Part shown: positions 9,164 to 31,467 of the stretch, piece after piece
Layout of the letters: every line of letters starts with the position of its first letter
How positions within the stretch are numbered: the first letter of the stretch is position 1
Source of the DNA: Ruminococcus albus 7 = DSM 20455
Lineage (GTDB): Bacteria; Bacillota; Clostridia; Oscillospirales; Ruminococcaceae
Direction: 5' to 3'
NCBI RefSeq assembly: GCF_000179635.2
Contig: NC_014824.1
Span: forward strand, 150,001-182,000
DNA: 32,000 nucleotides
Position numbers and translations under genes: made by a program
The notes under the pieces: model-generated
What the model was told of the DNA's origin: nothing
Seen by the model: the letters and a program-made list of their open reading frames with translations, nothing else
The model's database searches: none

Positions 9164-9207
9164 GGGGTTCACTCCTCCCTTATTCCTGCGATAAACCAAA
9201 TCAGAAT

Positions 9208-12790: not shown

Positions 12791-13177
12791 TATACAGATA
12801 TATTCCGCTAGAGAATTGCATATCTTTTTAGCTTCCGCATTTGGAGAAGTCTGGAAGATTTCTCCCGAAGGTGATTGCCATATTACTATGCCATCTATGT
12901 GTGCCTCCTCTATCACATAAAGTAAATGTTCTTCTATGAGATTTTTATTCCACTGTTTTTCTGTAACAGCAACCACATCAAGATTTCTATCGCAACTAAT
13001 TCCGGTCAATTCGTGGCCATTAAAAGATATTGTTCCATAATGCGCCACATATTCTTTATAATCATCTGCAAATTGAAGACCAAGCTTATCTTCAGCATTC
13101 TTAATCTTTTCCATTGAAACAGTACCCTCGAAGTAGAAATCCTGTCGTTCTTTCACTTTATCAAATATTATGCTCAT
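12788..13177 (-). CDS. SMI1/KNR4 (SUKH-1) family immunity protein
   Basis: 129 aa. Has the typical IKNAEDKLGLQFADDYKEYVAHYG motif. It starts 13 nt after the stop of the toxin gene. Confidence 0.8.
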   Translation of the reverse strand: MSIIFDKVKERQDFYFEGTVSMEKIKNAEDKLGLQFADDYKEYVAHYGTISFNGHELTGISCDRNLDVVAVTEKQWNKNLIEEHLLYVIEEAHIDGIVIWQSPSGEIFQTSPNAEAKKICNSLAEYICI

Positions 13178-13190
13178 TTAAATACTCCAT

Positions 13191-14498
13191 TCAACCTACC
13201 ATTGACGCAAATGCTTTCCAAAAAGCTTTTCGTTCTTCATCCCAATTATTTCCTGCCGCGTGTGCCTCTGTACGTTCAAGGAAACCATGAATTGCAGGAT
13301 TATCATGCTCTGATCGTGATAGAATAGCCAATGTACCATCTTTCTTTTGTCCTACATGGTGAAGTTCATAAGAAATTCCATTTGAGTCTTGCGGAGCTAA
13401 TCCCTCTTTCATTCGTTGCAAATTCGTTCTTCCCTTTGAGTCAATCCTAGTAAGATCAATATCACTTTTTATCAAAGCAGATTTATTCCCAACCATTGTT
13501 GATTTTAGGTTGGCATCTTTAAACACCTGATATTCTTCCATGTTGTGAAATTCTTTAATAACATCCAAAGGGTATTTTGTTTCTCGCTGTATCTTTGCAT
13601 ATTGGTTCATTGTGAACTCCGTTTGTTTTGCTGAACCATAAAGCGATTTCCCTTCACTGACGCCGCCTAAAACCGCCCCAGTGATTGCTCCCCATTTGAA
13701 GCCTTCAGATGCTTCGAGAGTAGCAGCTTTTGCCATTTCTTTGACATTTCTGGTTTCAATGCCCTTGACAATAGCAGCTGATACACCACCTAAAGCAGCA
13801 GATTTAATAGCAAATGTTGTTGCTTCTTTTGCGGAACCCGCAATTATCATACTCACAGCATGTGCGCCAACACCTGGAGAAACTACAGATACAGTCACAC
13901 AAATCAAAATAACTCCAGTACCAATAGCGACATTACGCATAACTGTATCGTAGGTGTTATCTCTGAATGCAGCCATCTCCTGCACAGTTGTTTGTCCATT
14001 TTCATCAAGGGTAAATATGTACTTTTGACCTTGAAATATCTCATTAAGCTCTGATGCCTTATATCCAAAGTAAATATTTTCCTGGGAGTTGAATTCTATT
14101 TCTTCATAGTATTCTTTAGGCATATACGCCGCCTGTACGTTTTCAACGAAATAATCATCACTGCCTAGTTGTTCAACAAGTTCTGAATAGACCGAATCTT
14201 CAACATACCGCAGTAGTTCCGGATCATTCATTGTCAAAAAACTAATATTTTCAATGTTATCCTGAATATCTGAAATACACTCTGATACGGAACTATCTCT
14301 CTCGTCAACGGCCGAACATGTAATATCATTTTCATCAGCATGGTCTTTAGAAGATATTTCATCATTTGTTTTGGAAATCTCATCATCGATGATTTCTGAT
14401 GACGCAGTATCGCTTACATTTATTTCAATCTCGGTATCTCCTGCACACCCTGTAAGCAGCATTGCGCATGATAGAAATAAAGCAATTACTCGTTTCAT
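13191..14498 (-). CDS. Polymorphic-toxin lipoprotein with a C-terminal HNH/EndoVII-fold nuclease domain (LHH type)
   Basis: Start at ATG 14498, with GAGAGG SD 7 nt upstream. Lipoprotein signal MKRVIALFLSCAMLLTGC. A central Gly/Ala-rich hydrophobic segment resembles a pre-toxin region. The C-terminus reads GLAPQDSNGISYELHHVGQKKDGTLAILSRSEHDNPAIHG. A SUKH immunity gene follows. Confidence 0.8.
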   Translation of the reverse strand: MKRVIALFLSCAMLLTGCAGDTEIEINVSDTASSEIIDDEISKTNDEISSKDHADENDITCSAVDERDSSVSECISDIQDNIENISFLTMNDPELLRYVEDSVYSELVEQLGSDDYFVENVQAAYMPKEYYEEIEFNSQENIYFGYKASELNEIFQGQKYIFTLDENGQTTVQEMAAFRDNTYDTVMRNVAIGTGVILICVTVSVVSPGVGAHAVSMIIAGSAKEATTFAIKSAALGGVSAAIVKGIETRNVKEMAKAATLEASEGFKWGAITGAVLGGVSEGKSLYGSAKQTEFTMNQYAKIQRETKYPLDVIKEFHNMEEYQVFKDANLKSTMVGNKSALIKSDIDLTRIDSKGRTNLQRMKEGLAPQDSNGISYELHHVGQKKDGTLAILSRSEHDNPAIHGFLERTEAHAAGNNWDEERKAFWKAFASMVG

Positions 14499-14521
14499 AC
14501 ACATACCTCTCTTTTATGCAA

Positions 14522-16426
14522 TTATTTGTTTCCTTTATATTTTCGAATAATTACAGCAATAATGCCAACTGCACTAAGAATCCCTATCCAAATAAAATAT
14601 ACATTTGATCTGTCAGTCTGTGCTGTAGTTTGATCTGTTTCCGAAGCTGACATAGAATCAACAGTTTTTTCTGCCACTGATGATGTTTCGGGTTCTATGG
14701 TATCGTCTCGAATCGAATAAGACGTTTCCACAATAGAAGATGTAACCTCAGTTTTAGATGATTCTGGCGGTATTAGTTCACCGCTGTCTGAAATCTCGTA
14801 GCCAGCATTTTCGACCAGATCAGATATTTCATTTATAGTGTAAGCTGAATTCTTAGCATTCATTGATGCGATAATTACACTATCCGAGCCTACGTAGATT
14901 TTCTTTACAGTCGGATTTTGCCCATATGGATCAGTCGTTGGATTAGTTACTTTTATCGTGTATATTCCCGGAGTTATGTATTCATCAGATTCTTTTGCGC
15001 TACGATTAAATTTAGTATCTTCAGTATACCCATTTACTCCTTTCGTCCATTGTGAGAGTTGAACGTTTATATTAAGATAGCGTGATTTTGCCCAATCCAA
15101 GATAAATCCGTTTTCAGTTACAGAGTCATTTGCAAGATAAGTATTTGTTACCTTATCTTTGGGATAAACAATAGCATTACTGTTCCTGACTTGAAAATTA
15201 AATGCTATTTTGTAATCATAAAATCTGTCTTTCCAATTATCATCAAGTATCTCATAATCCAGTGATACTTCGTAATCGCCCTCTTCAAACAACTGTACTT
15301 TAGTATTAGCGCCAGGTAATACAAGTGCTTCAAGAAAGTTGGTATAGATTATCGGATCATGAGTTATTCCTTTGTAATCTGTAAATCTTATAATAAGTGT
15401 TCCACGCTTGAAATTCTGCTGAGGTACATTAAGAATTGAATCATATCCATTTAAATCGGAATTAATTGTCAAGTGTTTGTCACCATTCAGTTTGTTTATA
15501 TTAACATTTTTGTTCATGTCAAACCAGAGGGTGATTTTATCACCAACATTTTTCAGAAAAACAGTATCTCCTGTAACAGTTTTCTTATTAGATGTAAATC
15601 CGCCCACTACAAATCTTCCAAGGTCCCAGCCTAAATGTGGATCATCACTGTCCATGTTGATGCTGTCTGTAAATCCATTATCAACCTTTACAGCCTGGGT
15701 CTTTCCAAGTTCAAATGTTTCGATGTTTTCGGGAATATTTTTATCTGCACCTTTATAGCCTGCATAAAAAGTATATACCTGAGCAATTTTCTTTATATCA
15801 TATTTATCTTTCTTTAGTAATTCCTTTATTTCCCATGAATAATCCTTAGTTCGCTTTTCTATCTCATAAGCTACGATAATACGATAATAGCAACCATTTA
15901 TAAGCTGAATATTATTTATCTGCCCATCATCAAACTCTTTATCACTTTTTATATTTACATAAGATTTACAGTCGATCCAATTATCACCATCAAATGATGT
16001 TTGGAAAATGAGGGCACCGTGATCAATATCATCATCAAGCTTTGAACCATTTACAACATTTTTGCCGTCTTTGATAAGATGCCAGTCATCTTCTCCTGCG
16101 TCTTTTAGAGAACTAATATATTCATACTCAAGACTGAACGTTTCGTCATCTGCTATCTCATACGCAGGTATACCATTTTTACTATAGCTTTTCTGAACAT
16201 CACCTTTCAAAGATAGTATACCTAACCTATAATCCATCAAATAGTTTTCAGACGGATCTGATGAATCAATCTCATATTTGCTATTTTCTCCGAATTCATA
16301 TAGCTCCCCTGTCAAGGTGATAATCTCTTCTTGGGCTTCTGCTGTAAAAGGAAATGCAGATGAAATCACTGTAAGCATCATTACTATCCCTAATGCATAT
16401 AATAGCTTTTTCTGCAAATTTTTCAT
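14522..16426 (-). CDS. Large secreted protein with a C-terminal membrane anchor, function unknown
   Basis: 634 aa. Signal peptide (LLYALGIVMMLTVISSAFPFTAEA), a Ser/Thr-rich stalk, and a C-terminal TM helix plus basic tail (VYFIWIGILSAVGIIAVIIRKYKGNK). Confidence 0.8.
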   Translation of the reverse strand: MKNLQKKLLYALGIVMMLTVISSAFPFTAEAQEEIITLTGELYEFGENSKYEIDSSDPSENYLMDYRLGILSLKGDVQKSYSKNGIPAYEIADDETFSLEYEYISSLKDAGEDDWHLIKDGKNVVNGSKLDDDIDHGALIFQTSFDGDNWIDCKSYVNIKSDKEFDDGQINNIQLINGCYYRIIVAYEIEKRTKDYSWEIKELLKKDKYDIKKIAQVYTFYAGYKGADKNIPENIETFELGKTQAVKVDNGFTDSINMDSDDPHLGWDLGRFVVGGFTSNKKTVTGDTVFLKNVGDKITLWFDMNKNVNINKLNGDKHLTINSDLNGYDSILNVPQQNFKRGTLIIRFTDYKGITHDPIIYTNFLEALVLPGANTKVQLFEEGDYEVSLDYEILDDNWKDRFYDYKIAFNFQVRNSNAIVYPKDKVTNTYLANDSVTENGFILDWAKSRYLNINVQLSQWTKGVNGYTEDTKFNRSAKESDEYITPGIYTIKVTNPTTDPYGQNPTVKKIYVGSDSVIIASMNAKNSAYTINEISDLVENAGYEISDSGELIPPESSKTEVTSSIVETSYSIRDDTIEPETSSVAEKTVDSMSASETDQTTAQTDRSNVYFIWIGILSAVGIIAVIIRKYKGNK

Positions 16427-17793: not shown

Positions 17794-17893
17794 GGAACGC
17801 ACCAATCCGCAATAAGGAAAACGTTAATCCGCCACAAGGAACGCACCAATCCGAAACGAAGAACGCATCAATCCGCAGAAGGAACGCACTTAC
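17794..17893. repeat. IS21 left-end multi-repeat (putative IstA binding sites)
   Basis: ggaacgcaccaatccgc, ggaaaacgttaatccgcc, ggaacgcaccaatccga, agaacgcatcaatccgc and ggaacgcact occur at roughly 22-25-nt spacing. Confidence 0.7.
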
Positions 17894-17954
17894 CATTCAG
17901 TCAATCTTATAGTGGGTCATTCAATAGAGTAGATAGTATCATACCTGAATAAAT

Positions 17955-18013
17955 GTTTTCACGGTTTCCACCGGAATGGAGCGAAGCGGAATGTAGGCGG
18001 AAACCGTGAAAAC
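17955..18013 (-). other. 15-bp perfect stem hairpin inside the IS21 element, downstream of the last ORF
   Basis: gttttcacggtttcc (17955-17969) pairs with ggaaaccgtgaaaac (17999-18013). The 29-nt loop contains cggaatg twice. Confidence 0.5.
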
Positions 18014-18080
18014 TGTGGTGGCCACACGCACGGGGTTTTCTAATCCGATTAGTATTGAACCAGCCTATTGTTACCGATCA

Positions 18081-18278
18081 TTACATCTTCGGATAATCTA
18101 TGTTGTTTTCCTCCAAAATGGATCTGAGTTCGTCAATGTACACATACAGTCTCTGAATCTCAATCCAGTTTCCGTGGCACAACCTGTCTGCCTCTTCAAG
18201 TTCGTGACGGGTCAACTCATAATCTTCCCATTTCAGGCATTTGTGATCTTTGCTGAAGGCGCAGTAATTTTCCATCAT
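18081..18278 (-). CDS. 65-aa hypothetical ORF coupled to istB
   Basis: Its ATG overlaps the istB stop (ATGA at 18275-18278). The protein is Cys/His-containing (MMENYCAFSKDHKCLKWEDYELTRHELEEADRLCHGNW...). No family recognised. Confidence 0.4.
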   Translation of the reverse strand: MMENYCAFSKDHKCLKWEDYELTRHELEEADRLCHGNWIEIQRLYVYIDELRSILEENNIDYPKM

Positions 18279-19021
18279 GACTCTGCCTCCTTCGCCTGCA
18301 ACTCACGCATATTGATGTCACCTGAATACACCCAAGCAGCAGTATGTACGATCCTGTCCATGATCGCGTCAGCGTGGATACCGCCGCCAAGACGACTGTG
18401 CCAGTCCTCGCGTTTGTACTGTGTACAGAAGATCGTTGAGGTGCAGTCATAACGGCGCTCGATCAGTTCAAAAATGAAGTGCTGTTCGCTTTCTGTCATG
18501 TCGTTCAGAAGCCATTCATCAAGAATCAGCAGACGGTATCCGCTGAACTTCTTCAGGAGTTTGGCTCTGCCATGTATATCCAGTGATGCTTCACTGAGCA
18601 GCTGCATGAGATCCGGAACCCTGATATACCTTGTGCGAAATCCCTGCATACAAGCCTGTCTGCCAATAGCACACGCAAGATAGCTCTTGCCGGAACCAGT
18701 GAATCCGTTGAACACGACCGGCTGGTTCTTTTCGATGAAGCCGCAGGTCCCAAGCGCCAGGATCAGATCCTTGTCCAGTCCGCGCTTTTCATAGTACACG
18801 TTCACAAGCACAGCATCCGCAATACGAAATTTTGCTGCATTGATCAGACGGTGGACCCTGGCATTGTATTTGGCTGAATAAGTATAATCAACAGCGATAT
18901 TCATCCGTTCATCAAATGAAAGCGCCATATATTCCGGCTGCTTTTCCTGAAAATCAAGGGCTTCGACCAATTCGCCAAGATTCATTTCACGCAACTTACG
19001 TCTTGTTTCCTCACTCAGCAT
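18275..19021 (-). CDS. istB: IS21 helper ATPase IstB
   Basis: Start at ATG 19021 with GGAGGTG SD upstream. Walker A GFTGSGKS and Walker B LLILDEW are present. It overlaps the istA stop by 11 nt. Confidence 0.9.
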   Translation of the reverse strand: MLSEETRRKLREMNLGELVEALDFQEKQPEYMALSFDERMNIAVDYTYSAKYNARVHRLINAAKFRIADAVLVNVYYEKRGLDKDLILALGTCGFIEKNQPVVFNGFTGSGKSYLACAIGRQACMQGFRTRYIRVPDLMQLLSEASLDIHGRAKLLKKFSGYRLLILDEWLLNDMTESEQHFIFELIERRYDCTSTIFCTQYKREDWHSRLGGGIHADAIMDRIVHTAAWVYSGDINMRELQAKEAES

Positions 19022-19943
19022 GACCGTCACCTCCGTAATAGGCAGCACCACGCACAAATCCAGCGGATGACGATCCATTTTCTTGCTTCTTGTTTTCCTT
19101 GTATTCCACATCCTGACCGGAGGCAAGGATCGCTTTTAGATGCGAATAGCGCGGCACACTGACATGTTCAATCGCCAGTTCACAAGCCATTTCCAAACGT
19201 TCGGACGAATACTTCTTACTCAGCTTCAGTACTGACATTGCGGGGTTGATGCCCTGTTCAGAGGTGCGGTAACTCTTGAAAATACGGTCAGTGACAGTCA
19301 ATGTCTGCTTGCCGATGGATGCAGCCCACTGCCGGAGCGTAAGCTCATTCCATTCCGTTGCCTGGAATCTTTCAGGGATGTCCTCCAGGTAGGTGTCGTA
19401 CCTATTGCGGACATAGCTTGGAAAGCGCTTGTGAGAAGAAATACGTTCATGACCGCAGTATATCTCGATCATGCTGTCAGTGATCTTCAGATCAACTGTC
19501 TTGCCTACGAAACGATACGGCACGGAGTATTTACAGGTCTGGTAGGTCACATGAAAATCCGAACCTATGACACGTCCGTATTCCCACACAGCGTATTCAT
19601 ACGGAAAGGCAGGCAGCGGATGAAGAGTGATTCTCTCATTCACTTCAAAGATCTCACGGCGACTGCCTTCACGCTTTTGAAAGGGCTTGTTGTTGAAATT
19701 CTCCAGCGCTGCTGCAACATCCGATTTCAAATCGATCATAGAAGTATATTCGCTGTTGCGAAGACGGGCGATGATAGCTGTAGCGATCTTTCCGACAGTG
19801 CCTTCAACAGATGCCTTCTGCTTCGGCTTTTTCACGCCTGCGGGCATGATCGCCGTACAGTAGTGATTGGAAAAATCCTCATAGGATTTGTTCAGAACAA
19901 TATCGCCTTCGCGGGGATGTGTGATAACACCGGTCTTAAGATT
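19011..19943 (-). pseudogene. istA: IS21 transposase IstA, C-terminal portion (gene split by the nested insertion)
   Basis: Reads ...LKTGVITHPREGDIVLNKSYEDFSNHYCTAIMPAGVKKPKQKASVEGTVG... from the junction at 19943 down to the stop at 19011. Confidence 0.85.
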
Positions 19944-19970
19944 TAATGTAAAGAGGATGTTAATGTAAAG
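19939..19970. repeat. Left terminal inverted repeat of the three-recombinase element
   Basis: agatt TAATGTAAAG aggatgt TAATGTAAAG is the perfect 32-bp reverse complement of 23341-23372. A further inverted copy, CTTTACATTA, lies at 20015-20024. Confidence 0.8.
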
Positions 19971-20068
19971 CTGAATAAAAATAGATCTAAAATCTAATGA
20001 TTATAGGTATTCGACTTTACATTAATATGATATAATTGGATCAATCATAGAAAGGAGGAATTATCATC

Positions 20069-21301
20069 ATGATTGATTCCAGTTACTCAATGACACTGTA
20101 TGATGCAATCCAACTGTTTCAAAGACACATCATACAAAACTGCGGATCTGAATCCAAAACAGCACAGGCTTACATTCGGATCTCTAATGATTTACAGCGG
20201 TATGCTAAAGAAACGGATTTGGAGGTTTCTCCGGAAGATGTGATCCAAGAATACTATCGTATTATCGTCGGGGTCCCTGCATTTGAAGCTGTTCCGTCAA
20301 AATCAAAAGAACGTCGAGGAAGAGCTGTTCAGATGATTCTGGATATCCTTAATGGAAAAGAACCTAAGAGAAAGTATACCACCCATAAGCGTGATTGTCC
20401 CATTACGTACCTGAATGTCATCAGAAAATATGAAACTTTCATGAGAAATGACCAAAAGAGCGATGGCACAGTACGCACGAGATCCGGACGAATCACTGTG
20501 TTTTTTGCTTTTCTTGAGGAGTGTAAATGTACATCATTAGAGGGCATCACGCCGGAGCTGTTTGCAAGATTTGTATCGTCCCTCAATGATAGGTATTCAT
20601 CACAGGGAAAAGCGTCCATTTTGTATACGTTAAGGAATTTCTTTTCCTATGATGAGTTCTCAGGAGCGCTATCTTTCGATCCGATTCCCTTTTTGACAGG
20701 GATTCATTCCGGAAAGCATGAAAGACTCCCATCCTTTTACACGGCAGAAGAAGTAAGGCGTATCCTGAATGCTGTCGACAGGAATACCCCATGGGGAAAA
20801 ACAGTCTATCTTATGATGCTTTTGGCAAGTGTGTACGGTTTTCGCTCAAGCGATATCAAAGCAATGGTTCTTGACAATATAAACTGGAAAAATCGCACAA
20901 TAAATATCACGCAGTACAAGACGCACAAAGAGATTTCCCTTCCCATGACAGATGAGATCCTTTTTTGCACTCCTTGACTATATTAAGAATGTGCGTCCTG
21001 AGTCAGACTGTTCGAATGTGTTCATCCGACTTAGAAAACCGTACATTGCATACTCAATGAATGATCACTTTGGCGACAAGATATTACCGTTTTTTGAAAT
21101 TGCCGGTGTTGATACAAAGGTAAACATCATGGTCTGCATTCTTTAAGGCATAGTTTGGCAACAAACCTTTTGGTTTCAGGAACCCCGATAAATGAGATTG
21201 CTGTGATACTTGGACACACATCTGCGGCATCCACAAAAACTTATGTATGGTCAGATATAGAGCATCTCCGAGCAGCAGCATTGGAGGTGCCTAAAAAATG
21301 A
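20069..21301 (+). pseudogene. Tyrosine recombinase 1 (RitA-like) with two frameshifts
   Basis: AGGAGG SD upstream. The frame breaks at the T6 run 20961-20966 (+1) and at GG 21119-21120 (-1). The corrected reading gives ...GKHHGLHSLRHSLATNLL...LGHTSAASTKTYVW, i.e. the R-H-R-Y box. Confidence 0.75.
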
Positions 21302-22277
21302 TCAATGACAAGGAATTTCTTAAATTTGAAGAAGGTTTTTCAAACCATATTTTGAAAAATTCATAGAGTTCAAGCGTGGAAAAGGTGAAAAAGTTGCTCA
21401 TTCAACCATGGTTCGCTTAAGGAAACTGAACAATTCGCTTAATACTTACTATGAACACCATATATCTGACCAGATGGTGGAGGAGTTACTGGCTCCTCGT
21501 GATGGATTAAGCGAATTAGAACGCCAATATCTTACAGCGAATCTCCGCCAGTTTTGTTCTTTCTTGGCGCTTCTCGGAATTGATGCGGTCATCGTCCCAC
21601 GAAAATATATGCGAACGGTAAAGAGTGAATTTCGTCCGTACATTTTCAGCGACGATGAACTGCGCCGTCTGACTATTGCAGCCGACACGCTTCCTGCATC
21701 AAGAAAGTCGAGCTCGCATCAGCAGATATACCCAGTGCTCGTCAGATTACTTATAGGTACCGGAATGCGCATAGGCGAAGTCCTTGCACTGAAGCGGGCG
21801 AATGTTGACACTTCAAACGGTGTGATCAATGTTATCAACGGTAAAAATGGCGTTTCAAGATTTATTCCTGTATCCGACAGCTTGAAAGAAGTCCTATTTG
21901 ACTATGCCAAGACTATAGATATGTCTGATGAGAATAGACCGTTTTTCACTTCCTCCTACACCGGTGGTCATCTTACATATGATGCTATGAAATATATGTT
22001 TCCAAAGATGTTTAAGACGGCAGGCATACACAAGTCAGATGGTAAGACGCCAAATATCCATTCTATCCGGCATACATTCTGCACCAAAAGTCTGGAAAAA
22101 ATGTTGGAAAACGGAATGAATGTCTATACTGCTATTCCAATACTGGCGGCATACGTCGGACATGTGAATTACATAGATACAGAAAAATACATTCATTTCA
22201 CAGAACAGGGACATACGGATTTCTTGCAGAAAGAATCATCCTTGGGGAGTCTATTCCCGGAGGTGGACAATGAGTGA
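21298..22277 (+). pseudogene. Tyrosine recombinase 2 (RitB-like) with one 5'-proximal frameshift
   Basis: ATG 21298 overlaps the stop of recombinase 1 (ATGA). MINDKEFLKFEEGFSNHI then hits a stop. The frame resumes (KFIEFKRGKGEKVAHSTMVRL...) after the T4 run at 21350-21353. Catalytic motifs GMRIGEVLAL, HSIRHTF and GHVNYIDTEKYIH are present. Confidence 0.7.
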
Positions 22278-23274
22278 TAATTTATTCTTCTATATACAAC
22301 GATATTTTATGTCTTACCTAATGAAACAGCATAATTACGGCCCTAATACTGTTTCATCATACCGAGACACCTTTAAGCTTTTGCTTAAATTTATGTCAGA
22401 ATCCGGTAAAAGCATATCAAAGAAAACTGTTGATGAGATTGACTGCGATGTAGTACTCAAGTTTCTCTCTTGGCTTTCGAATGTCAGGAAAAATGGGGTG
22501 CCTACCCAAAATGTAAGATTGGCACATATAAAATCATTTTTTCGATATGTAATGATGATCTCACCTGAATACTCCGGGCAATGCAGCGAAATACTCAGTA
22601 TACCATTTGCAAAGGAAGATAAAAGGCTTCCTGATTGTATGTCTACGGATGCTATAAAGCAAATGCTTTCATCGATCGACTCATCATCTAACGAGGGACT
22701 AAGGCATTTGGCAATCTTATCCCTTATGTACGATTCAGCTTGTAGGGTTCAGGAAATCATTTCACTAGATGTCAAAGACTTTCAGCCGGGTCAATGCTGC
22801 AGGATATATGTGCATGGTAAGGGAAATAAATATCGCACCATTCCGTTACTGGGAAAAACAGAAAAAATCATCTCAAAATATATCAGGCAATTCGGTCTTA
22901 TGCAAGAGTCCCCAATGTTTTGCAACAGGAATGGTGACCGGCTAACAAGGCAAGGCATCCGCTACATAATAAGGAAATACTCTAAGTTGGCAAACGATAC
23001 GGTTCCCGGTATTATAACCGGCTCTGTATACCCACATCGATTACGCCACAGTAAAGCCACACACCTTGTGGACAATGGCGTAAACATTTATAATGTCAGG
23101 GATTTCTTGGGACATGAGTCTGTTGCAACAACTCAGATTTACCTGTCAACGAATCCGGAAGTTATCAGAAAGGCTATCGAGACAGTAGCTGAGAAAACAG
23201 TATCAGAAAGCCTTGATTTCTTTTCAGACAAAGAAAAGGACGATTTGATTTCCTTCTTGGATTCACTAGGATAA
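22270..23274 (+). CDS. Tyrosine recombinase 3 (RitC-like), intact
   Basis: 334 aa. It overlaps the previous gene by 8 nt. Motifs present: ACRVQEIISL, HRLRHSKATHLV and GHESVATTQIYLS. Confidence 0.85.
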   Translation: MSDNLFFYIQRYFMSYLMKQHNYGPNTVSSYRDTFKLLLKFMSESGKSISKKTVDEIDCDVVLKFLSWLSNVRKNGVPTQNVRLAHIKSFFRYVMMISPEYSGQCSEILSIPFAKEDKRLPDCMSTDAIKQMLSSIDSSSNEGLRHLAILSLMYDSACRVQEIISLDVKDFQPGQCCRIYVHGKGNKYRTIPLLGKTEKIISKYIRQFGLMQESPMFCNRNGDRLTRQGIRYIIRKYSKLANDTVPGIITGSVYPHRLRHSKATHLVDNGVNIYNVRDFLGHESVATTQIYLSTNPEVIRKAIETVAEKTVSESLDFFSDKEKDDLISFLDSLG

Positions 23275-23340
23275 CACGCATTTGTTAATGTAAAGTAGGT
23301 CATGATGGAATGCCGATCAGACTTTCATTGAAACGGCCGA

Positions 23341-23372
23341 CTTTACATTAACATCCTCTTTACATTAAATCT
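23341..23372. repeat. Right terminal inverted repeat of the three-recombinase element
   Basis: CTTTACATTA acatcct CTTTACATTA aatct. It is followed by an extra TAATGTGAAG CTTTACATTA pair (23374-23393) and then GAGATT (23394-23399). Confidence 0.8.
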
Positions 23373-23399
23373 CTAATGTGAAGCTTTACATTAGAGATT

Positions 23400-24026
23400 G
23401 TCGCAGACGACACGCAGCGTAACGCCGCCGAAATACTCAAACATATGAATATTGCAGTTGATCCATGTCTGCTCGTTCATATTCAGGCAGGGCTCGACAT
23501 ATGCAAGCTGACTGTACGGGAGTGCTGCGACAAAAAGATACACAGGATACACCTTACCTTCTTCCGGATCATGAAGCCGCATCGTCTTGCCGCTCCAGTC
23601 CACTTCACATACAACACCGGGCTTATGGGCGATGTGGTTGGTGAGATCGTTCTGCTCGACATACTTGGTATAGTCATCGCAGAATTTTGTGTATCCTACT
23701 GTAACGCCATCTTTCACACCGTCCTTGTATTCCTGCCAAAGCAGCTTGAGAGTGACACCGGTCTTCTTCAGCTCAGTGTGGACGTACTCGTAATTGACAG
23801 GTTCATATACCGTTTCCTTCCTGAACTTGTCCGGGAAGAAAAGCAGATACACCTCATCGTCACTCTTGTCTGCAACATCAGCATAACTGACACCGAGGTC
23901 ATCTGCCCTCTTCCATACTGATGCCACAGACTTGGTTGAAATATGCCTGGATGCTGCAATAGCCCTCTGCGACATATTTGCCTTACGAAGCTCCAAAAGA
24001 AGCTTCACATTGATCTTGTCTGCCAT
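23400..24026 (-). pseudogene. istA: IS21 transposase IstA, N-terminal portion (HTH and start of the DDE domain)
   Basis: Start at ATG 24026 (MADKINVKLLLELRKANMSQRAIA) with GAAGGAGG SD upstream. It runs to ...EYFGGVTLRVVCDN at the junction with the nested element. Confidence 0.85.
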
Positions 24027-24082
24027 ATTTATGGCCTCCTTCGTGTAGATTCGAGGCATAGCCTCTACCTACATTATACACG

Positions 24083-24190
24083 AAGTGCGTTCCTTTGGCG
24101 AATTACTGCGTTCTTTGCGCGGATTAGTGTTTTCCTTGCCGCGTATCGATGTTTTCCTTCCGGCGGATTGATGTTTTCCGGAGCGCGGAA
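24083..24190. repeat. IS21 right-end multi-repeat
   Basis: Inverted copies of the left-end motif: gcgttcc..., gcgttct..., gcggattagtgttttcc, ggcggattgatgttttcc. Confidence 0.7.
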
Positions 24191-24397: not shown

Positions 24398-24440
24398 AGT
24401 TATACCTCCTTTAAGGTCTCTGTTTTTATCTTCTGACTAT

Positions 24441-24483
24441 ATTATATCACTGCCGCAGACAAGGTTATAAAAATGGATTCCAA
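24441..24483 (-). promoter_or_regulatory. Extended -10 promoter plus the same 18-nt upstream motif as at 16609-16651
   Basis: On the minus strand: TGATATAAT (-10 at 24446-24441). TTGGAATCCATTTTTATA (24483-24466) ends exactly 19 nt upstream. Confidence 0.45.
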
Positions 24484-24500
24484 AATAAAAAGCAGGCTCA

Positions 24501-24701
24501 ATGCAGAAGACATCAAACAAGCTTATCTACATAGGCAAGCAGATTGAAATTGATGAAAAAACATTCGCTTCTGACCTCAGAGAACTTCGTGATGCTGCTA
24601 AAAAGAACAATGAGAAGATTGCTCTTGAAGCGTTACATAAGATGATGCCTACGTTTACAACACCGGAAGCGTTCAATAGCAAAGTGTTAATGAACGTATA
24701 A
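24501..24701 (+). pseudogene. C-terminal fragment of a CapD/WbpM-like polysaccharide biosynthesis (NDP-sugar epimerase/dehydratase) gene
   Basis: TSNKLIYIGKQIEIDEKTFASDLRELRDAAKKNNEKIALEALHKMMPTF resembles the extreme C-terminus of that family. There is no upstream coding sequence. The call is from memory only. Confidence 0.35.
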
Positions 24702-25238
24702 GTGAAAATGGTATCTGAAATTACCCATTATGCTCATATTAATATGATACCTGTGCTTTATATGAAAAAACACAGGTATCAGGAAATCCTAGTTGGCTTC
24801 ATTTGAAGCTAAAGTAAAAGTGGAAGCCTTAACATATAAGTTGGGGCTTCCTCTTAATTTTGATGTAAAGTCTATGAAACAGATATGAAAATAGGTGTTA
24901 TTGCTTGTGGTAATCTGGCAGGATAGATTGCAAACGCACACCTATTCTGTCATCTCGAAGTGAATGTATTTTGTCAACTAAAGATGATAATACTACAGTT
25001 TTCAAAATAAATAAAAATCGACATTTAAAAATATTAATAAACACCTTTAAAGCTATTAATGAAATAACGAATAATTTTGCTTTTGATAAATGTTATAACG
25101 AAGAGATGACAGAAAAGATTAAAGAACTTATGGTGTCAAATATTATTAATCAATCATGACATGCCCCTTGAAATCTGTATTTACTGTTTTGCAGACTCGG
25201 AATTACAGACGATTAATTTATCAAATCCAAAACATTAA

Positions 25239-25271
25239 CAGCGGAGTCGTTCAAAGTGCCTCCGCTGTTTT
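25239..25271. terminator. Terminator hairpin downstream of the TM-protein gene
   Basis: Stem cagcggag / ctccgctg (25239-25246 and 25260-25267), followed by TTTT on the plus strand. It could serve both strands. Confidence 0.5.
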
Positions 25272-25334
25272 GTGTTTTCTGTTTATTTATGGTAGTGACT
25301 CTGCGAACAGTGTAATGTAAGATGATTACTTATT

Positions 25335-26174
25335 TCAGTAAATCTTTCTTCCTTTTGCCTCGAATGCTCTATTTCCAGTTCTTCTTTGCTGAAAAACATA
25401 GAGCCTTTTTATATTTCCTCTATCACCAATGACAAAAACTCGCCTTATAATATTTACTGTATGCATAGGATTTGTAGTAGCGAAAACATTGATAGTTATA
25501 TCTTGTGGTAGTTTTCTTACTTCGTTTATAATATTTTTTATGAAATCTTGATTGAAATATCTACCAAAATCATTTCCGTCATTTCTACTTATTTTAATAG
25601 TAGGTAGATTCTTTTTAGTTGTTGGTATTTGATTATTTGAAATAGGGTATGTATCTTCAAGGATTATATTTACTTCACGAATATTTGCAACAATCCTTTT
25701 TTTGTCAATTTTAATAGTCTTGTTCTCTTCGATCGGATAGTCGCTTTCGATTAAAGGAAATTGATTAAAAACTGAGCGGGAAACTAATTTGAATTGCATG
25801 AAAATCGGAACTAATATCAAGTTGCATTTTTCTATGTTTAAAAACTTAGCACAAAACAGATACCATATAAATGGATAGTTGTGATAGCAATTCGCTCGAT
25901 TTGCCATTTTTTCTTTATCGTGATTGTATTTTCTTATGGCAATTAACGCGGCTATAAACATTGCAATTGAAATGAAAAAACTTCCTTTTTCAATTGTAAG
26001 ATAATATATTGCATTTTCAGGAGTTGGATGGTCTTCTTCACTCAAATATTTTTGAAAGATACTTTTAATATCTATGAAATAAGGGAGGCAACAAACTATA
26101 ATCAATACTATTATTTCTGCAATTTGCAAACAATTATCTTTAATGAAATTAAAAATTTTATTTAGTTTTTTCAC
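25335..26174 (-). CDS. Multi-TM protein with a beta-rich ~150-aa C-terminal domain; candidate effector/sensor of the E2-E1/JAB cassette
   Basis: GTG start at 26174 with AAGGAG SD 8 nt upstream. TM helices are IAEIIVLIIVCCLPYFI and FFISIAMFIAALIAI, plus 1-2 weaker hydrophobic segments. The C-terminal domain is not assigned to any family. Confidence 0.8.
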   Translation of the reverse strand: MKKLNKIFNFIKDNCLQIAEIIVLIIVCCLPYFIDIKSIFQKYLSEEDHPTPENAIYYLTIEKGSFFISIAMFIAALIAIRKYNHDKEKMANRANCYHNYPFIWYLFCAKFLNIEKCNLILVPIFMQFKLVSRSVFNQFPLIESDYPIEENKTIKIDKKRIVANIREVNIILEDTYPISNNQIPTTKKNLPTIKISRNDGNDFGRYFNQDFIKNIINEVRKLPQDITINVFATTNPMHTVNIIRRVFVIGDRGNIKRLYVFQQRRTGNRAFEAKGRKIY

Positions 26175-26184
26175 AATAGACTCC

Positions 26185-26661
26185 TTATAACTGAACCTCT
26201 GTTTTGATTTCGATTATATCTTTTCCATTTGTGTACCAGCATCGAATCTCTTCCATTCCTACAATAATAAAGAATGATATATCGTAGTTCCTCTGTTCCT
26301 TTGCTTTTTTCTTCCAACTGTTTTTATCAATCCATGAAGGAGAAGGACATTTTTCTCTATGTGAATGCCATTCTCCTAAATAGCTTTTAACACTCTCTGA
26401 TTTTTCCCAGAGATCATCCATGATAGACTGATGAGCGGGATCTTTTCTTACGAAGCGGAACTTTGCCTGAATATCGTTTTTTTGAGGCCATGTAATATCA
26501 GTAACAACATAGGTGTTTTCTGTAGCATCATAATATCCGACAATAATACCGCCATATTCGACTGAAAAGCTATTTGTGCATTGGAATGATTTAAGAGATT
26601 TATAAACCTCTGGCGATATCTTTACCTTTATTGTTGATGCTTCATTTTGCACACCGGACAC
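26185..26661 (-). CDS. JAB/JAMM (MPN+) metallopeptidase, Cap3-like
   Basis: Complete JAMM signature: Glu in SVEYGGIIVG, then EWHSHREKCPSPSWID (HxH-x7-S-xx-D). The start is uncertain: GTG 26661, or GTG 26652 which has GAGGTG 8 nt upstream. It overlaps the E2-E1 gene. Confidence 0.85.
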   Translation of the reverse strand: MSGVQNEASTIKVKISPEVYKSLKSFQCTNSFSVEYGGIIVGYYDATENTYVVTDITWPQKNDIQAKFRFVRKDPAHQSIMDDLWEKSESVKSYLGEWHSHREKCPSPSWIDKNSWKKKAKEQRNYDISFFIIVGMEEIRCWYTNGKDIIEIKTEVQL

Positions 26662-28340
26662 ACCTCGATTGGTTCAAATGATTTTTGTACTATACCGTTA
26701 TACTTGGAAGAGGAGATACAGGCTTTATAATAATCTGATACAGCAAATCCATTGTTTTCAAGAGTTATTGAGTTGCCATACCATGATAAGAGAGTGCTTG
26801 TATTAGTTTCTCCTTTTAAAACGGATATACATAGTCTACTCGTTAGCAAGGCGGTTTGCTGGGTATCAAGTGAAGAATACTCAACATATGTTCCTGCACA
26901 ACCAGATATAGTTTTTGAAAAGTTCTGACCCTCTTTAACAAAACTCGTACTGAAAGAAATTAGTTCACCAGAGAGTATATCTGAATATAGACATCGTAAA
27001 CAGCCGCCTTGTGTTACGTTTACAGCTATTGCGTGACCTCCGATACCATAAGGCTCATTAAAGCATACGACAAAAGGAACAGATATTTTTTGCTCTATTA
27101 GCAGTTTATTTATTTCAAGGTTTATAGTCGGTTCGCCAAGTGCAGAAACAATCAAGTCATAATTTTTCAACCGTTCTGGCGTTTTTAATAGTTCCCGAAC
27201 ATCACGATTGACACAATTCATAGGATCAATTTCAGCGAATGGATAATGATCTTCAAGGTAATTAGACATAAGATCTGCTTTATTTTTTTCTTTTAGGGCA
27301 TCGCTGAAACCGAGAATATGTCTGTGAACATTTTCTACATATAGAATATCTTTATCAAGTATATCGATACAGCATAATCCAGACTGACAAAGATTAGCGG
27401 CGACGTATCCACCAACTGAGCCACATCCAAGCAATAAAACACGCTTATCTTTTAAATTTGACGGGGTTCCTGTTTTAAGTGTCATATATTCATAATCAAT
27501 CATTTTAATTGAAAGGGGTTTTACTTTGCTATCATTTACTTTTTCGAGAATTTTATAAGAATTTCCTTTCCGGTTTATACTGAAACCGACAGGAATGTCT
27601 CTTTTCATACCTGGAATCATTAAAATGATAAATATACGGAAAGTCTTATACTTGTTTTTTAGTATTTTTTTGAACTTAGCTTTTTGACTTGATGTAGTGT
27701 TTTGAAGAATAAACAGCCTTAACCATTTCCATGTATATACGTCTTTTATAGGAATGGAAACGAATTTACTTAGTTTTATAAAATACGTTTTGATAATGTA
27801 AGGACTGTCTGTTCTTTCATTAAAGTAGCTGTCAAGAATTGATAATGACAGTTCCTTATTGTCCGATAAAACAATCTTATGATTTATGCATACAGAGTCA
27901 AGCAGCTCAAAAGAATTAAAAGTATACTTTGGAGTAACCATGTGCAATTGCAACAGGCTACGTTCTCCCCAGTAAGCATTGAATTCTTTTAGTATTTCTG
28001 ATGTGTATTGTGTACTACCAGGCTCGATACTTAGTATTTCTACTGCACGATCGAAAGCATCGAGCAGAATAATATACGGATCAACAGAATTTATCAGTAA
28101 AGATGAGTTTTCAAACAAACAAAGCTTATTATCTTTATCAACGTGGGGATAAAACCTCTTACTGTTTTCAAGATAGAAGAAAGGAAATTCCATGGGAAAG
28201 TGATTGTTGAAGCTTATTCTTAGTTCAAGACTCTCGGTTCCAATTGATACTTTCCCGTGAAATTCATCCGTAGTTTCTGGTACGTGAGAAAATCTTACAT
28301 TTCTATCTCGATTAAGCTGTTCAATGTAATTCTCTATCAT
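26628..28340 (-). CDS. E2-like (UBC fold) and E1-like (ThiF/MoeB adenylation domain) fusion protein, Cap2-like
   Basis: 570 aa. The N-terminus has the prokaryotic E2 pattern HFPMEFPFFYL...FYPHVDKDNKLCLF. The centre has RVLLLGCGSVGGYVAANL (Rossmann fold) followed by ENVHRHILG. The C-terminal part has CLRC and CPVC zinc motifs. Confidence 0.85.
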   Translation of the reverse strand: MIENYIEQLNRDRNVRFSHVPETTDEFHGKVSIGTESLELRISFNNHFPMEFPFFYLENSKRFYPHVDKDNKLCLFENSSLLINSVDPYIILLDAFDRAVEILSIEPGSTQYTSEILKEFNAYWGERSLLQLHMVTPKYTFNSFELLDSVCINHKIVLSDNKELSLSILDSYFNERTDSPYIIKTYFIKLSKFVSIPIKDVYTWKWLRLFILQNTTSSQKAKFKKILKNKYKTFRIFIILMIPGMKRDIPVGFSINRKGNSYKILEKVNDSKVKPLSIKMIDYEYMTLKTGTPSNLKDKRVLLLGCGSVGGYVAANLCQSGLCCIDILDKDILYVENVHRHILGFSDALKEKNKADLMSNYLEDHYPFAEIDPMNCVNRDVRELLKTPERLKNYDLIVSALGEPTINLEINKLLIEQKISVPFVVCFNEPYGIGGHAIAVNVTQGGCLRCLYSDILSGELISFSTSFVKEGQNFSKTISGCAGTYVEYSSLDTQQTALLTSRLCISVLKGETNTSTLLSWYGNSITLENNGFAVSDYYKACISSSKYNGIVQKSFEPIEVCPVCKMKHQQ

Positions 28341-28344
28341 AAAA

Positions 28345-28524
28345 TCAAGCGGATTCAGATGTTCCTACATAACTGCGGTCTGCTTTGATTGGAAAGTCGT
28401 TCCCAAAAATTTGAGCCAACACTTTACAAGCTTCAGATTTTTTATCGGTATTCTCAACTTCTGTTAGCTTTGATTTCATAGTGGTTAATTTGCTATGGAA
28501 ATCATCTTGCTGATTCTCAGTCAT
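28345..28524 (-). CDS. 59-aa ORF directly upstream of the E2-E1 gene: either a gene remnant or a small substrate/partner protein
   Basis: Below the ORF-track cutoff. The sequence is MTENQQDDFHSKLTTMKSKLTEVENTDKKSEACKVLAQIFGNDFPIKADRSYVGTSESA. Its stop lies 4 nt before ATG 28340. No SD precedes either in-frame ATG (28524 or 28479). Confidence 0.3.
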   Translation of the reverse strand: MTENQQDDFHSKLTTMKSKLTEVENTDKKSEACKVLAQIFGNDFPIKADRSYVGTSESA

Positions 28525-29880
28525 CTTACTGAAGAGATTGTTTTTTGGTTCAACAGGAAGATTTTGACTAACTCTATTCTGGTTTCCGGCGGACAGACCA
28601 CTGTTGCTAACTTGTTTTACAACATGGGAAGACGACAGGTTGGTCTTGTAGGACTTTGGGATGTAGTTGCTTTTGACGAAGTAGCTGGCATCAATTTCAA
28701 AGATAAAGACGGCGTTCAGATCATGAAGGACTACATGGCTTCCGGTTCATTTGCAAGAGGTAAGGATGCTATTCAGGCTAATGCTTCAATGGTGTTCGTA
28801 GGTAATATCAATCAGAGCGTGGATTATCTTTTGAAGACTTCACATCTGTTTGAACCGTTTCCTGATGCAATGATAGACAGCGCATTCTTTGACAGAATGC
28901 ATTGCTATATTCCGGGATGGGAAATTCCTAAGATGCGTCCGGAGTATTTCACAGATAATTACGGATTCATTTCTGATTATCTTGCAGAGTTTATGCGTGA
29001 AATGAGAAAGGTTCCGGAAACAGATGCCTTTGATAAATTCTTCAAACTCGGCAGATGTCTGAATCAGAGAGATACTATCGCTGTAAGAAAGATGGTATCT
29101 GGTCTGACAAAGCTTATCTACCCTGATGAAAAGTATACCGAAGAAGACATGGAAGAGATTCTGAGATATGCTATCGAAGGACGTAGAAGGGTTAAAGAGC
29201 AGCTGAAGAAAATCGGCGGTATGGAGTTCTATGATGTACAGTTCTCGTTTATCCGTAATTCAAATATGGAAGAGGTAAACGTTCCAGTTCTCGAACAGGG
29301 CGGCGGCAAACTGATTCCTGAAGGAACGGGAAAAGCAGGACATGTATATACCGTTGCTAACGGAACCAACGGCATGATGGGACTGTTCAAGTTTGAGAGC
29401 ACTATGACAAACGGCAGTGGCAAATTCGATGTTACTGGTATGCAGAGTGCCAAGGAAACAAAAGAATCCGTAAAAACAGCTCAAAACTACTTTAAAGCTA
29501 ATGCTAAACATATCAGTGCTTCCATATCTACTGACAGCAGGGATTATCTGATGCACATTCAGGATTGTCAGGGAGTAGGTCTTGACAGCAATATTTCGCT
29601 TCCTGCATTGGTTGCATATTGCAGTGTGGCTATTGACAAGCCTATTCTGCCTCAGTTATGCGTACTCGGCTCTATGAGTATAGGCGGAACTATAAACCCT
29701 GTAGAAGAGCTTGCATCAACACTCCAGGTTGCTTTTGATGCTGGTGCAAAGAGAATTCTAATCCCGATGAGCAGCGCAGCAGATATACCAACCGTACCGG
29801 CAGAGCTGTTTGCAAAGTTCCAGATTTCGTTCTACAGTAGTCCGGAGGATGCGGTTATTAAGGCGTTAGGAATTGAGTAA
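28495..29880 (+). pseudogene. brxL: 5'-truncated BREX Lon-like protease BrxL (Walker A and the whole N-terminal domain are missing)
   Basis: From about nt 28570 the protein matches my memory of BrxL closely: NSILVSGGQTTVANLFYNMGRRQVGLVGLWDVVAFDEVAGINFKDKDGVQIMKDYMASGSFARG...GWEIPKMRPEYF...RRRVKEQLKKIGGMEFYD...Lon-like C-terminus. The first 25 codons are unrelated. An in-frame TAA at 28486 closes the frame upstream. No other BREX genes are in the window. Confidence 0.85.
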
Positions 29881-29908
29881 TGAAATATTAAGAAGGTTAT
29901 ACTGTATA

Positions 29909-31207
29909 ATGAAAATTAAATTTTCGGTAGACGGAATAAAGAACATGGATTTGCTGTATACCTGGCACAAAGAAATGGATGAAACACTAGGATTTGATGT
30001 GTCAACAGAGAATTACCATGGGACAGAATACTGTCAAACTGTAATCAAAGATATTGTTGAAGAGTTACAAGATATTGTAGAAGACACCTATATCGGACAA
30101 CTAGAAAGAATTGCCAACGAAACATTTGAGTTAAAAACTGAGAAATCCACATACCAAGTTTCCTTCGCTATAAACACTTATAACAAAGAAGAGGCGAGGG
30201 TCGAATGTATAATTTTTACTGATGATTGTGAGAATTATGATAAGAATCTTGAAAAACTAAAGATTATACTGAAAAATAGATTGATTTTAGATTGGCGTAA
30301 ATGCACATGGCTTGTAGACGAACAATCGGAATATCTTTGCAGAGAAGCTTTTCAAAAAACGTATCATGTTGAAAATAATCTGCGTGCTTTTGCTAGCAAA
30401 GTACTTATTCATTTCTTAGGAGTAAACTGGATTGAAACGTGGGATGCATTGGATGAAATGTATCGTGAACAAGAAGAGGCAAAAGCTGATGAAGAAGATT
30501 ATTACAGAGATAGACTAGCTTCTGAAACAGGAATGGACATTCTTGATGATGAAAATATTATAGAGTGGTTTGATGAAGTAATTAATGATTTATATGATTC
30601 CATCTATCAGCATTATCATTTAGAGACAGGGTTTGAGATTTCAGATCTTTCATTACCTTCTATGGACAACTTGGCTTTTTCTGTACAATGTATGGTTGTT
30701 GAAGATGGAACAGCCGTTGTAGAAGTTATCACTGATTATTCGATTGATTCTTCTCTTGGAGGAACAAGTATATGTACTCTTATATGTAAAAATAATAATA
30801 AAGAAGTATTTACTGCAGAAATTAGATTCCACAATGGAAATGGTTTTGAAAATGAAGAATGTTTGATGGAAGTTATCGAAAATACAGAGTATGATGATTC
30901 TGAAATAGAAGAATTCAAAGAGAAGTTGATAGATGCAATTAATAAGCTTAACCCATATCCCGCTATCCTAAAACAATTGGAATATGAATCAAAGGGTTGT
31001 GATTCATTTGTTGCAGACTTTCCTTGCGAGCAATGTGATAAACTTGGAGTTTCATTAAACGAAAGATTTCTGACAATTGGGCGCTGTTACTTTTGTGGTT
31101 ATGAGCACGAATTAGATACATGTATTCGTTGTGGCGAGTTATTTAATGCAAATGAACTTGAAGACGGTTTTTGCTCGAATTGTGCTGATTATATTGAGAA
31201 ACAGTAA
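29909..31207 (+). CDS. Hypothetical protein with a C-terminal cluster of CxxC zinc-ribbon motifs
   Basis: ATG 29909 (MKIKFSVDG) is preferred over the TTG at 29873. The middle has an ENNLRAFASKVLIHFLGVNW segment. The C-terminus reads CEQCDK...CYFCGYEHELDTCIRCGELF...FCSNCADY. It is more AT-rich than brxL. Confidence 0.7.
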   Translation: MKIKFSVDGIKNMDLLYTWHKEMDETLGFDVSTENYHGTEYCQTVIKDIVEELQDIVEDTYIGQLERIANETFELKTEKSTYQVSFAINTYNKEEARVECIIFTDDCENYDKNLEKLKIILKNRLILDWRKCTWLVDEQSEYLCREAFQKTYHVENNLRAFASKVLIHFLGVNWIETWDALDEMYREQEEAKADEEDYYRDRLASETGMDILDDENIIEWFDEVINDLYDSIYQHYHLETGFEISDLSLPSMDNLAFSVQCMVVEDGTAVVEVITDYSIDSSLGGTSICTLICKNNNKEVFTAEIRFHNGNGFENEECLMEVIENTEYDDSEIEEFKEKLIDAINKLNPYPAILKQLEYESKGCDSFVADFPCEQCDKLGVSLNERFLTIGRCYFCGYEHELDTCIRCGELFNANELEDGFCSNCADYIEKQ

Positions 31208-31231
31208 GGCCTTTTGAATAACAACTTTTCC

Positions 31232-31260
31232 TTGACGGTTTTTATCTGCTGTAGTATAAT
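31232..31260 (+). promoter_or_regulatory. SigA-type promoter
   Basis: TTGACG (31232-31237), a 17-nt spacer, then TATAAT (31255-31260). It lies 34 nt upstream of the ATG at 31294. Confidence 0.65.
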
Positions 31261-31293
31261 ATTGGAAGTGCACAATTTCAGGAGGTTACTACG

Positions 31294-31467
31294 ATGTTAG
31301 ATGCAATTACAGTCGGTGAAAAGATCAGAATGACTAAGAGCATTACCAGCGCTTATCCGATAGATTCAACGGCAACGATATTTTACATAGACGATTTTGA
31401 TGTAGTTTCTATCGAATGGGCTGACGGAAAGCTGGAGCGTAAATATAACAAATACAAAAGCGGATAG
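31294..31467 (+). CDS. 57-aa DUF4314-like small protein
   Basis: Below the ORF-track cutoff. AGGAGG SD lies 8 nt upstream. The sequence is MLDAITVGEKIRMTKSITSAYPIDSTATIFYIDDFDVVSIEWADGKLERKYNKYKSG. The pattern G..V.....G..G.V..iDD.g.v.V.W resembles DUF4314. Confidence 0.6.
   Translation: MLDAITVGEKIRMTKSITSAYPIDSTATIFYIDDFDVVSIEWADGKLERKYNKYKSG

Follow-up and report, generated by a model that had tools for sequence, protein, structure and literature searches.

The 32,000-nucleotide stretch of the Ruminococcus albus 7 (= DSM 20455) genome analyzed here (contig NC_014824.1, positions 150,001 to 182,000; hereafter the window, to which all unmarked coordinates refer) carries on its minus strand three open reading frames (ORFs), located at 25335-26174, 26185-26661 and 26628-28340 and encoding 279, 158 and 570 amino acids, respectively. 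A preliminary description, made from the sequence alone, had read them as a membrane protein, a JAB peptidase and an E2-E1 fusion, the latter two being the Cap3 and Cap2 hallmarks of type II CBASS (cyclic oligonucleotide-based antiphage signaling system), apparently without the signal-generating CD-NTase (a nucleotidyltransferase of the cGAS/DncV type; cyclase). The gene coordinates of that description proved exact, and the AT-rich character of the block (GC content of 0.29-0.36 over 25-28.5 kb versus 0.40-0.49 in the flanks), the overlap of the cap2 and cap3 genes and, by Pfam and PADLOC profile searches, the E2, E1 and JAB domain assignments were all borne out. Directly upstream of cap2, the 3' part of a cyclase gene meets, head to head, the 3' part of brxL, a gene of the type I bacteriophage exclusion (BREX) system. 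We consider the cassette to be very probably what is left of a type II CBASS operon of four genes (cdn-cap2-cap3-2TM/SAVED effector) that has lost its cyclase. The features of the locus are the following:

25335..26174, minus strand: intact gene of a CBASS effector of the SUa-2TM family (Pfam PF18179, PADLOC 2TM, AlphaFold2 and Foldseek)
26185..26661, minus strand: intact cap3 gene, JAB/JAMM isopeptidase (Pfam Prok-JAB, PADLOC JAB, PDB 9ILD)
26628..28340, minus strand: intact cap2 gene, E2-E1 fusion (PADLOC E1-E2, Pfam Prok-E2_B and ThiF, PDB 7TO3/7TSQ)
26898-26900, within cap2: Cys481 in SGCAG, candidate catalytic cysteine of the E1 domain
27408-27428, within cap2: adenylation loop GCGSVGG
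28119-28121, within cap2: Cys74 of the E2 domain
28345..28569, minus strand: 3' stump of the CD-NTase gene, comprising codons 262-335 of 335 and the stop codon (PADLOC, NCBIfam, alignment with the related locus L016, tblastn)
28569..28570, no strand: deletion junction at which the two stumps stand head to head (blastn against intact relatives, both sides)
28570..29880, plus strand: 3' two-thirds of brxL, residues ~240-675 of 675, with the BrxL_N domain and Walker A motif gone (PADLOC, NCBIfam)

The cyclase stump had escaped the preliminary description, according to which the window contained no CD-NTase/SMODS-like ORF. The 59-aa ORF upstream of cap2 (28345-28524) is the in-frame, ATG-initiated part of this stump, and 15 further codons precede it, making 74 codons in all. 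Fifteen PADLOC cyclase models align with this ORF through their C-terminal ~50 residues, PDLC00795 most strongly (positions 273-322 of 340, E = 3e-13), as do the NCBIfam cGAS model (positions 285-339 of 339) and NCBIfam CBASS cyclase models through their C-terminal ends, and DNA homology to intact cyclase genes extends to position 28569. The stump retains the clade-conserved C-terminal tail ...SYVGTSESA and carries two window-specific substitutions, Y to K and I to N, at otherwise conserved positions. The N-terminal catalytic core (GS...DxD of the L016 cyclase) was absent from the entire window, as judged by tblastn.

On the other side of the junction, the plus-strand ORF at 28495-29880, which overlaps the 59-aa ORF, corresponds to BrxL without its N-terminal third (PADLOC BrxL model PDLC02506, positions 240-680 of 680, E = 1.5e-210; NCBIfam TIGR02653, positions 235-674 of 675) and shares 95% amino acid identity with a full-length 675-aa BrxL (P0128) over residues 240-675. 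In blastn comparisons of window positions 28101-29100 with the loci of relatives, homology to cap2 and the 3' part of the cyclase gene runs from 28101 to 28566-28569, and homology to brxL begins at 28570. Against L016, the closest intact relative (96% nucleotide identity in this region), the match starts exactly at 28569, i.e. at codon 262 of 335 of the cyclase gene, and comparison with locus L012 places the brxL breakpoint at about codon 240 of 675, just past the segment encoding the Walker A motif GPRGTGKS. No filler DNA lies in the junction, microhomology there amounts to 2-3 nt at the most, and no end of a transposon or other mobile element was found at 28569/28570. Mis-assembly can produce such a picture, two truncated genes that face each other at one base, yet the same junction with 100% identical flanks is also seen in GCA_000621285.1 from NCBI and in no fewer than two independent assemblies from Logan (SRR4055041, SRR1168527), and 23 contigs carry the exact Cap2, leaving virtually no chance that the locus is a chimeric join of two loci.

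Two other sources of the stumps were considered and rejected. Searching the 32-kb window by tblastn with the relatives' cyclase, BrxA, BrxB, BrxC, PglX, PglZ and full BrxL recovered the two stumps only, with the cyclase match running from residues 261/262 to the end; since the reciprocal pieces (the 5' parts of the cyclase gene and brxL and the other BREX genes) are nowhere in the window, they were not moved nearby by an inversion or translocation. The IS21/recombinase element at 17859-24178 was dismissed as the cause of the deletion on account of its ends, which lie more than 4 kb from the junction.

Relatives of the locus carry what the window lacks. In all assessable relatives of Cap2 (63-97% nucleotide or protein identity), a full SMODS CD-NTase of 323-343 aa is encoded directly upstream of cap2. 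This applies to L016-L018 (97% nucleotide identity over cap2-cap3), to L004, L005/L006 and L019 (Cap2 84-86% identical, cyclase of 335/336 aa), to L008-L011 and L020-L022 (Cap2 81 and 63% identical, respectively), and to L023-L027, four-gene operons that were reached via homologs of the 279-aa protein. In the GTDB species representatives, a scan with Cap2 alone returned no relative, and a scan with the family alignment returned 24 loci. A full cyclase lies directly upstream in 21 of them (21/21 assessable), two are cut by a contig end inside cap2, and the remaining one (L051), which aligns only over the E1 domain and at 27% identity, is too remote for an assessment. The preliminary description had left two readings side by side, an undescribed cyclase-less configuration and a CBASS operon deprived of its cyclase, and had noted that a CD-NTase directly upstream of the E2-E1 gene in all close homologs would speak for decay. 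Such a gene is present in every assessable case; together with the cyclase stump and the junction with brxL, this upholds the second reading, whereas the first is contradicted by the cyclases of all close homologs.

The layout from which the window would derive can be read from the same loci. In L004, L005/L006 and L019 the cyclase gene diverges from brxA across a gap of ~283-290 bp; brxB, brxC, pglX and pglZ follow brxA, and cap2, cap3 and an effector gene follow the intact cyclase gene. The matches listed did not include the BrxL of the L005 and L019 contigs. The loci L012-L015, in which BrxL and the window fragment share 95% identity, have a 675-aa brxL directly after pglZ and align collinearly with L019, L004 and L005 (76-81% nucleotide identity). 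The ancestral layout would have been a CBASS operon head to head with a type I BREX system (brxA-brxB-brxC-pglX-pglZ-brxL). Because BREX divergently adjoins the cyclase gene in relatives and brxL comes after pglZ, one deletion would explain both truncations. Such a deletion, by illegitimate recombination, would have extended from codon ~240 of brxL through the whole of BREX and the shared intergenic promoter region to codon ~261 of the cyclase gene, fusing the 3' ends of the two genes at 28569|28570. We infer this single event from the synteny in relatives; its size would be ~12.7 kb when the gene lengths of L019 are summed, or ~14.2 kb with a gene pair of L012-L015 included. This pair, a 338-aa gene and a 145-aa Fic-domain gene, is situated between pglX and pglZ at 5977-7431 of the L012-L015 loci and is absent from the BREX of L019.

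A history of two or more events, for instance one in which brxL had already decayed when a CBASS fragment was inserted or recombined into it, would agree with the lack of any contig linking the brxL lineage of the window (95% identity to P0128) to its CBASS lineage, and with the fact that CBASS could not be shown on the contigs of the closest BrxL relatives (L012-L015). However, the divergent adjacency of BREX and CBASS recurs in the right orientation in three relatives, one deletion in the ancestral arrangement yields exactly the head-to-head fusion observed, and the junction has neither filler nor mobile-element end, which makes such a history quite improbable.

The proteins left by the putative single deletion are well preserved. 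Cap2 (ADU23887.1/WP_013483437.1) matches Pfam Prok-E2_B (E = 1.5e-10) and ThiF (E = 2.8e-20), the PADLOC CBASS 'E1-E2' model spans its residues 6-568 (E = 5e-122), and in a PDB sequence search its E1 domain matched the solved Cap2 structures 7TSQ and 7TO3 (E ~1e-9). All invariant columns of a 42-member Cap2 family alignment are retained in the window protein, including Cys74 (KLCLF), the GxGSxG loop, Cys447/450, Cys561/564 and Cys481 (SGCAG); its CLRC and CPVC cysteine pairs are those named as zinc motifs in the preliminary description. In Cap2 of Enterobacter cloacae, the catalytic cysteine of E2 is C109, located on a hairpin, and that of E1 is C548, located on the crossover loop (doi 10.1101/2022.03.31.486616), and Cys74 and Cys481 are, by position in the sequence, candidates for their counterparts. 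Cap3 scores with Pfam Prok-JAB (E = 3.5e-10), PADLOC JAB (E = 1e-43) and the peptidase of PDB entry 9ILD (E = 1e-15). Its JAMM motif (E...HxHx7SxxD) is complete, with Glu35 in VEYGG and HSHREKCPSPSWID at residues 99-112 (window 26326-26367). With the NCBIfam Cap3 model it reaches 96.7 bits, under the equivalog cut-off of 200, so that this score indicates family-level membership only.

The C-terminal domain of the 279-aa protein, which the preliminary description had left as beta-rich and unassigned, can now be placed. The protein has two N-terminal transmembrane (TM) helices (residues 18-34 and 66-80) and matches over its whole length the Pfam family SUa-2TM, 'SMODS- and Ubiquitin system-associated 2TM effector' (PF18179; E = 3e-55, 187.8 bits versus a cut-off of 25, profile positions 8-275 of 279), as well as the PADLOC models Effector 2TM (E = 3e-101) and SAVED_TM (E = 3e-83). 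SUa-2TM proteins are listed as type II CBASS effectors in other genomes (PMC11381338). A sequence search of the PDB returned no match for the protein, and fold comparison was used instead. The AlphaFold2 model, built with 48 homologs, had a mean predicted local distance difference test (pLDDT) value of 90.6 and a predicted template modelling (pTM) score of 0.86, and with its C-terminal ~190 residues Foldseek retrieved from the PDB exclusively SAVED-domain proteins at probability 1.0, namely Cap5 (7RWM/8FM1), Cap4 (6VM6), the BtCap14 SAVED domain (9OM7) and 3TM-SAVED (9WQ2), although TM-scores against the solved SAVED domains were modest (0.35-0.44). On this model, the protein is a membrane effector whose nucleotide sensor is a compact SAVED-like domain, and the model thereby documents such a sensor for SUa-2TM effectors. 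In the loci examined, its homologs always lie within cdn-cap2-cap3-2TM operons. Cap14 (Saf-2TM plus SAVED), a 2',3'-cGAMP-gated chloride channel (PMC10402079), likewise combines N-terminal TM helices with a C-terminal SAVED-type sensor; unlike Cap14, the window effector stands outside the Saf-2TM Pfam family and its SAVED-like domain is shorter (~190 aa).

The effector position varies among relatives. In L016-L018 a 391-aa SAVED-fusion effector replaces the 2TM gene despite 97% nucleotide identity over cap2-cap3, and the effectors of L008-L011, L019 and L020-L022 are SAVED proteins of 334-369 aa; near-identical cdn-cap2-cap3 backbones in rumen and gut Clostridia thus swap 2TM and SAVED-fusion effectors. 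Within the window lineage itself, the SRR4055041 assembly, otherwise identical at the locus, lacks five bases (AAGTA) after the first TM helix of the effector (window ~26060-26064; L002 position 12277). The resulting frameshift leads to a 236-aa ORF being called instead of 279 aa, and may signal decay in progress or be a strain variant.

In the intact system, the cyclase would sense infection and make a cyclic oligonucleotide. Cap2 adenylates the C-terminus of the cyclase, conjugates it to targets and primes the enzyme, and Cap3 cleaves the conjugates (doi 10.1101/2022.03.31.486616; PMC10097602; PMC11153139); the tail ...SYVGTSESA of this clade is the presumed Cap2 substrate. Binding of the nucleotide to the SAVED-like domain modelled in the 2TM protein would then lead to damage or permeabilisation of the membrane. 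With the type II CBASS of E. cloacae and Vibrio cholerae (Ledvina et al., doi 10.1101/2022.03.31.486616; Jenson et al., PMC10097602) the window shares the Cap2 E2-E1 fusion with both candidate cysteines, a JAMM Cap3, and the gene order with its overlaps; its relatives carry the complete four-gene operon, and the cyclase tail of the clade ends in a small residue (Ala), as does the tail ...TGRFA of E. cloacae CdnD. It differs in keeping only the last 74 codons of the cyclase gene and in the deletion of the upstream control region. Among the components by which type II CBASS is recognized, Cap2, Cap3, an effector and an operon conserved in homologs are all present, and only a CD-NTase with its catalytic core is missing; by descent, the locus belongs to type II CBASS, its effector being of the SUa-2TM family, and it falls short of functional membership only through the truncation of its cyclase. 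As for type I BREX, what the plus-strand ORF shares with a full-length BrxL is residues 240-675, at 95% identity; the other five genes of the set and the first third of brxL are absent, leaving a non-functional fragment.

E1, E2 and JAB activities without a cyclase are also found in Bil and 6A/6E-type systems, which combine them with a ubiquitin-like protein (Ubl) and resemble the cyclase-less reading. A Bil/6A-MBL-type system was rejected on three counts: such systems encode a beta-grasp Ubl, and none was found by Pfam search among the small neighbouring ORFs of the window; the NCBIfam 6A-MBL cap2_3 model scored 53 bits against a cut-off of 320; and Cap2 matches the CBASS models over its full length. 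The locus is no new kind of system, but a known one caught shortly after its inactivation. A false lead is thereby removed, in that what appeared to be a cyclase-less E1-E2/JAB system is a type II CBASS just after the loss of its cyclase. The case also illustrates how orphan genes of intact appearance may be mistaken for a new architecture in annotation, whether automated or by eye, and it offers a clean, base-resolved view of defence-island erosion in which one deletion would have disabled BREX and CBASS together.

Since the nucleotidyltransferase core of the cyclase is gone, no cyclic nucleotide could be made in cis, and phage-triggered synthesis and abortive infection are predicted to be absent. 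Expression is probably affected as well. A promoter-like site (TTGACT-17-TGnTATGAT) precedes cdn in L016, and the corresponding intergenic region is deleted in the window; no minus-strand promoter-like site was found upstream of the stump in a weak consensus scan (15 sites versus 21 expected by chance), and the promoter and terminator scans gave fewer sites than shuffled controls. The ATG of cap2 stands 4 nt past the cdn stop codon without a Shine-Dalgarno sequence, which the ATG of the stump lacks too. Translation of cap2 probably depended on coupling to the cyclase gene, and both this coupling and the native promoter have probably been lost. To judge from the sequence, the cassette would have lost its expression along with its function and is most likely inert, with both CBASS and BREX dead, the latter because the N-terminal domain and Walker A motif of BrxL and the rest of BREX are absent. 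The undamaged state of Cap2, Cap3 and the effector fits a recent event and points to a recent loss, and small hints of erosion are seen in the two substitutions of the stump and in the 5-bp frameshift of the effector in SRR4055041.

Several observations weigh against the interpretation of the cassette as a dead remnant of a joint BREX-CBASS island. None of the contigs fetched holds brxL together with the other BREX genes and the CBASS operon, and that the brxL fragment and CBASS once formed one island is deduced from synteny in relatives with 76-92% DNA identity. The consensus test for promoters is weak, and read-through antisense to brxL may take place. Cap2, Cap3 and the effector retain every family-invariant residue, and the ratio of nonsynonymous to synonymous substitution rates (dN/dS) against relatives is 0.12-0.18, no higher than between the relatives themselves; there is thus no relaxation in cap2 or the effector gene, a result that neither dates the deletion nor proves decay, and selection on the three proteins may be continuing. 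Finally, the search for another cyclase covered the 32-kb window.

The same integrity of the three genes and of their catalytic motifs could be taken as the mark of a functional cyclase-less Cap2/Cap3 system acting on a different substrate, be it the 2TM protein, the 59-aa peptide or some protein of phage or host, all the more as the 59-aa ORF retains the conserved ...SYVGTSESA terminus and a C-terminal 12-residue cyclase peptide suffices to bind the E1 site of E. cloacae Cap2 (doi 10.1101/2022.03.31.486616). Nevertheless, the configuration stems from a deletion junction found only in this lineage, every assessable relative has a full cyclase, the SAVED-like sensor of the effector needs a nucleotide ligand, the stump ORF has no apparent promoter or Shine-Dalgarno sequence, and a frameshifted effector variant exists, so that this possibility is highly improbable.

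Somewhat less remote, though still quite improbable, is service in trans, whereby a CD-NTase encoded elsewhere in the R. albus 7 genome would activate the orphan 2TM-SAVED effector, perhaps after priming by Cap2. The undamaged effector and Cap genes would suit such a role, as would the exchange of effector modules between near-identical backbones, which suggests modular parts; against it stand the deleted native promoter region, the lack of another cyclase in the 32-kb window, and the ligand and tail specificity of CBASS, which normally match the cognate cyclase. We likewise give little credence to the broader proposal that either the stump peptide, with its retained tail for Cap2, serves as a free mini-modifier attached by Cap2 and taken off by Cap3 or the orphan effector is triggered in trans by a cyclase elsewhere; were it true, a deletion remnant would be working as a rewired defence module. 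A CBASS remnant deprived of its cyclase remains the reading to which the stump, the junction and the intact relatives point.

The surroundings of the remnant contain further mobile and defence-related genes. Homology to the BREX loci of relatives stops at the brxL stop codon, which is overlapped by a plus-strand 444-aa ORF (29873-31207) with an acidic middle part and several C-terminal CxxC pairs resembling zinc ribbons; it had no match in Pfam, PADLOC or NCBIfam. Megablast of positions 24400-31300 against the PLSDB plasmids gave no match. The IS21-family insertion sequence at 17859-24178 has imperfect terminal repeats (17859-17891 and 24083-24115) and an istB gene at 18275-19126; istA falls into two parts (19011-19847 and 23391-24059), interrupted by an insertion of 3.4 kb (19939-23372) with perfect 32-bp inverted repeats at its ends (19939-19970 and 23341-23372). 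This insertion carries three tandem tyrosine-recombinase genes, the first apparently frameshifted (20069-20977 with pieces to 21301), and looks like a recombinase-in-trio type element nested in the insertion sequence.

Farther away, the minus strand at 12788-16426 encodes a polymorphic-toxin-like cassette consisting of a 634-aa ORF without family match, a 437-aa protein with a C-terminal LHH (HNH/EndoVII) nuclease domain (13191-14504) and, after it, a SUKH-family immunity gene (12788-13177). Also on the minus strand, at 6078-9199, a Y-family (ImpB/MucB) polymerase gene (6078-7571) is located near an SOS-response-associated peptidase (SRAP) gene (8477-9199), with alpha/beta-hydrolase genes nearby; this group is unrelated to the CBASS remnant. 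Beyond window position 32000 (L001, positions 1-8432) the defence island continues with a 904-aa protein kinase/NB-ARC (nSTAND6-like) protein, a PhdYeFM-PIN toxin-antitoxin pair and an AAA_14/DUF4143 ATPase.

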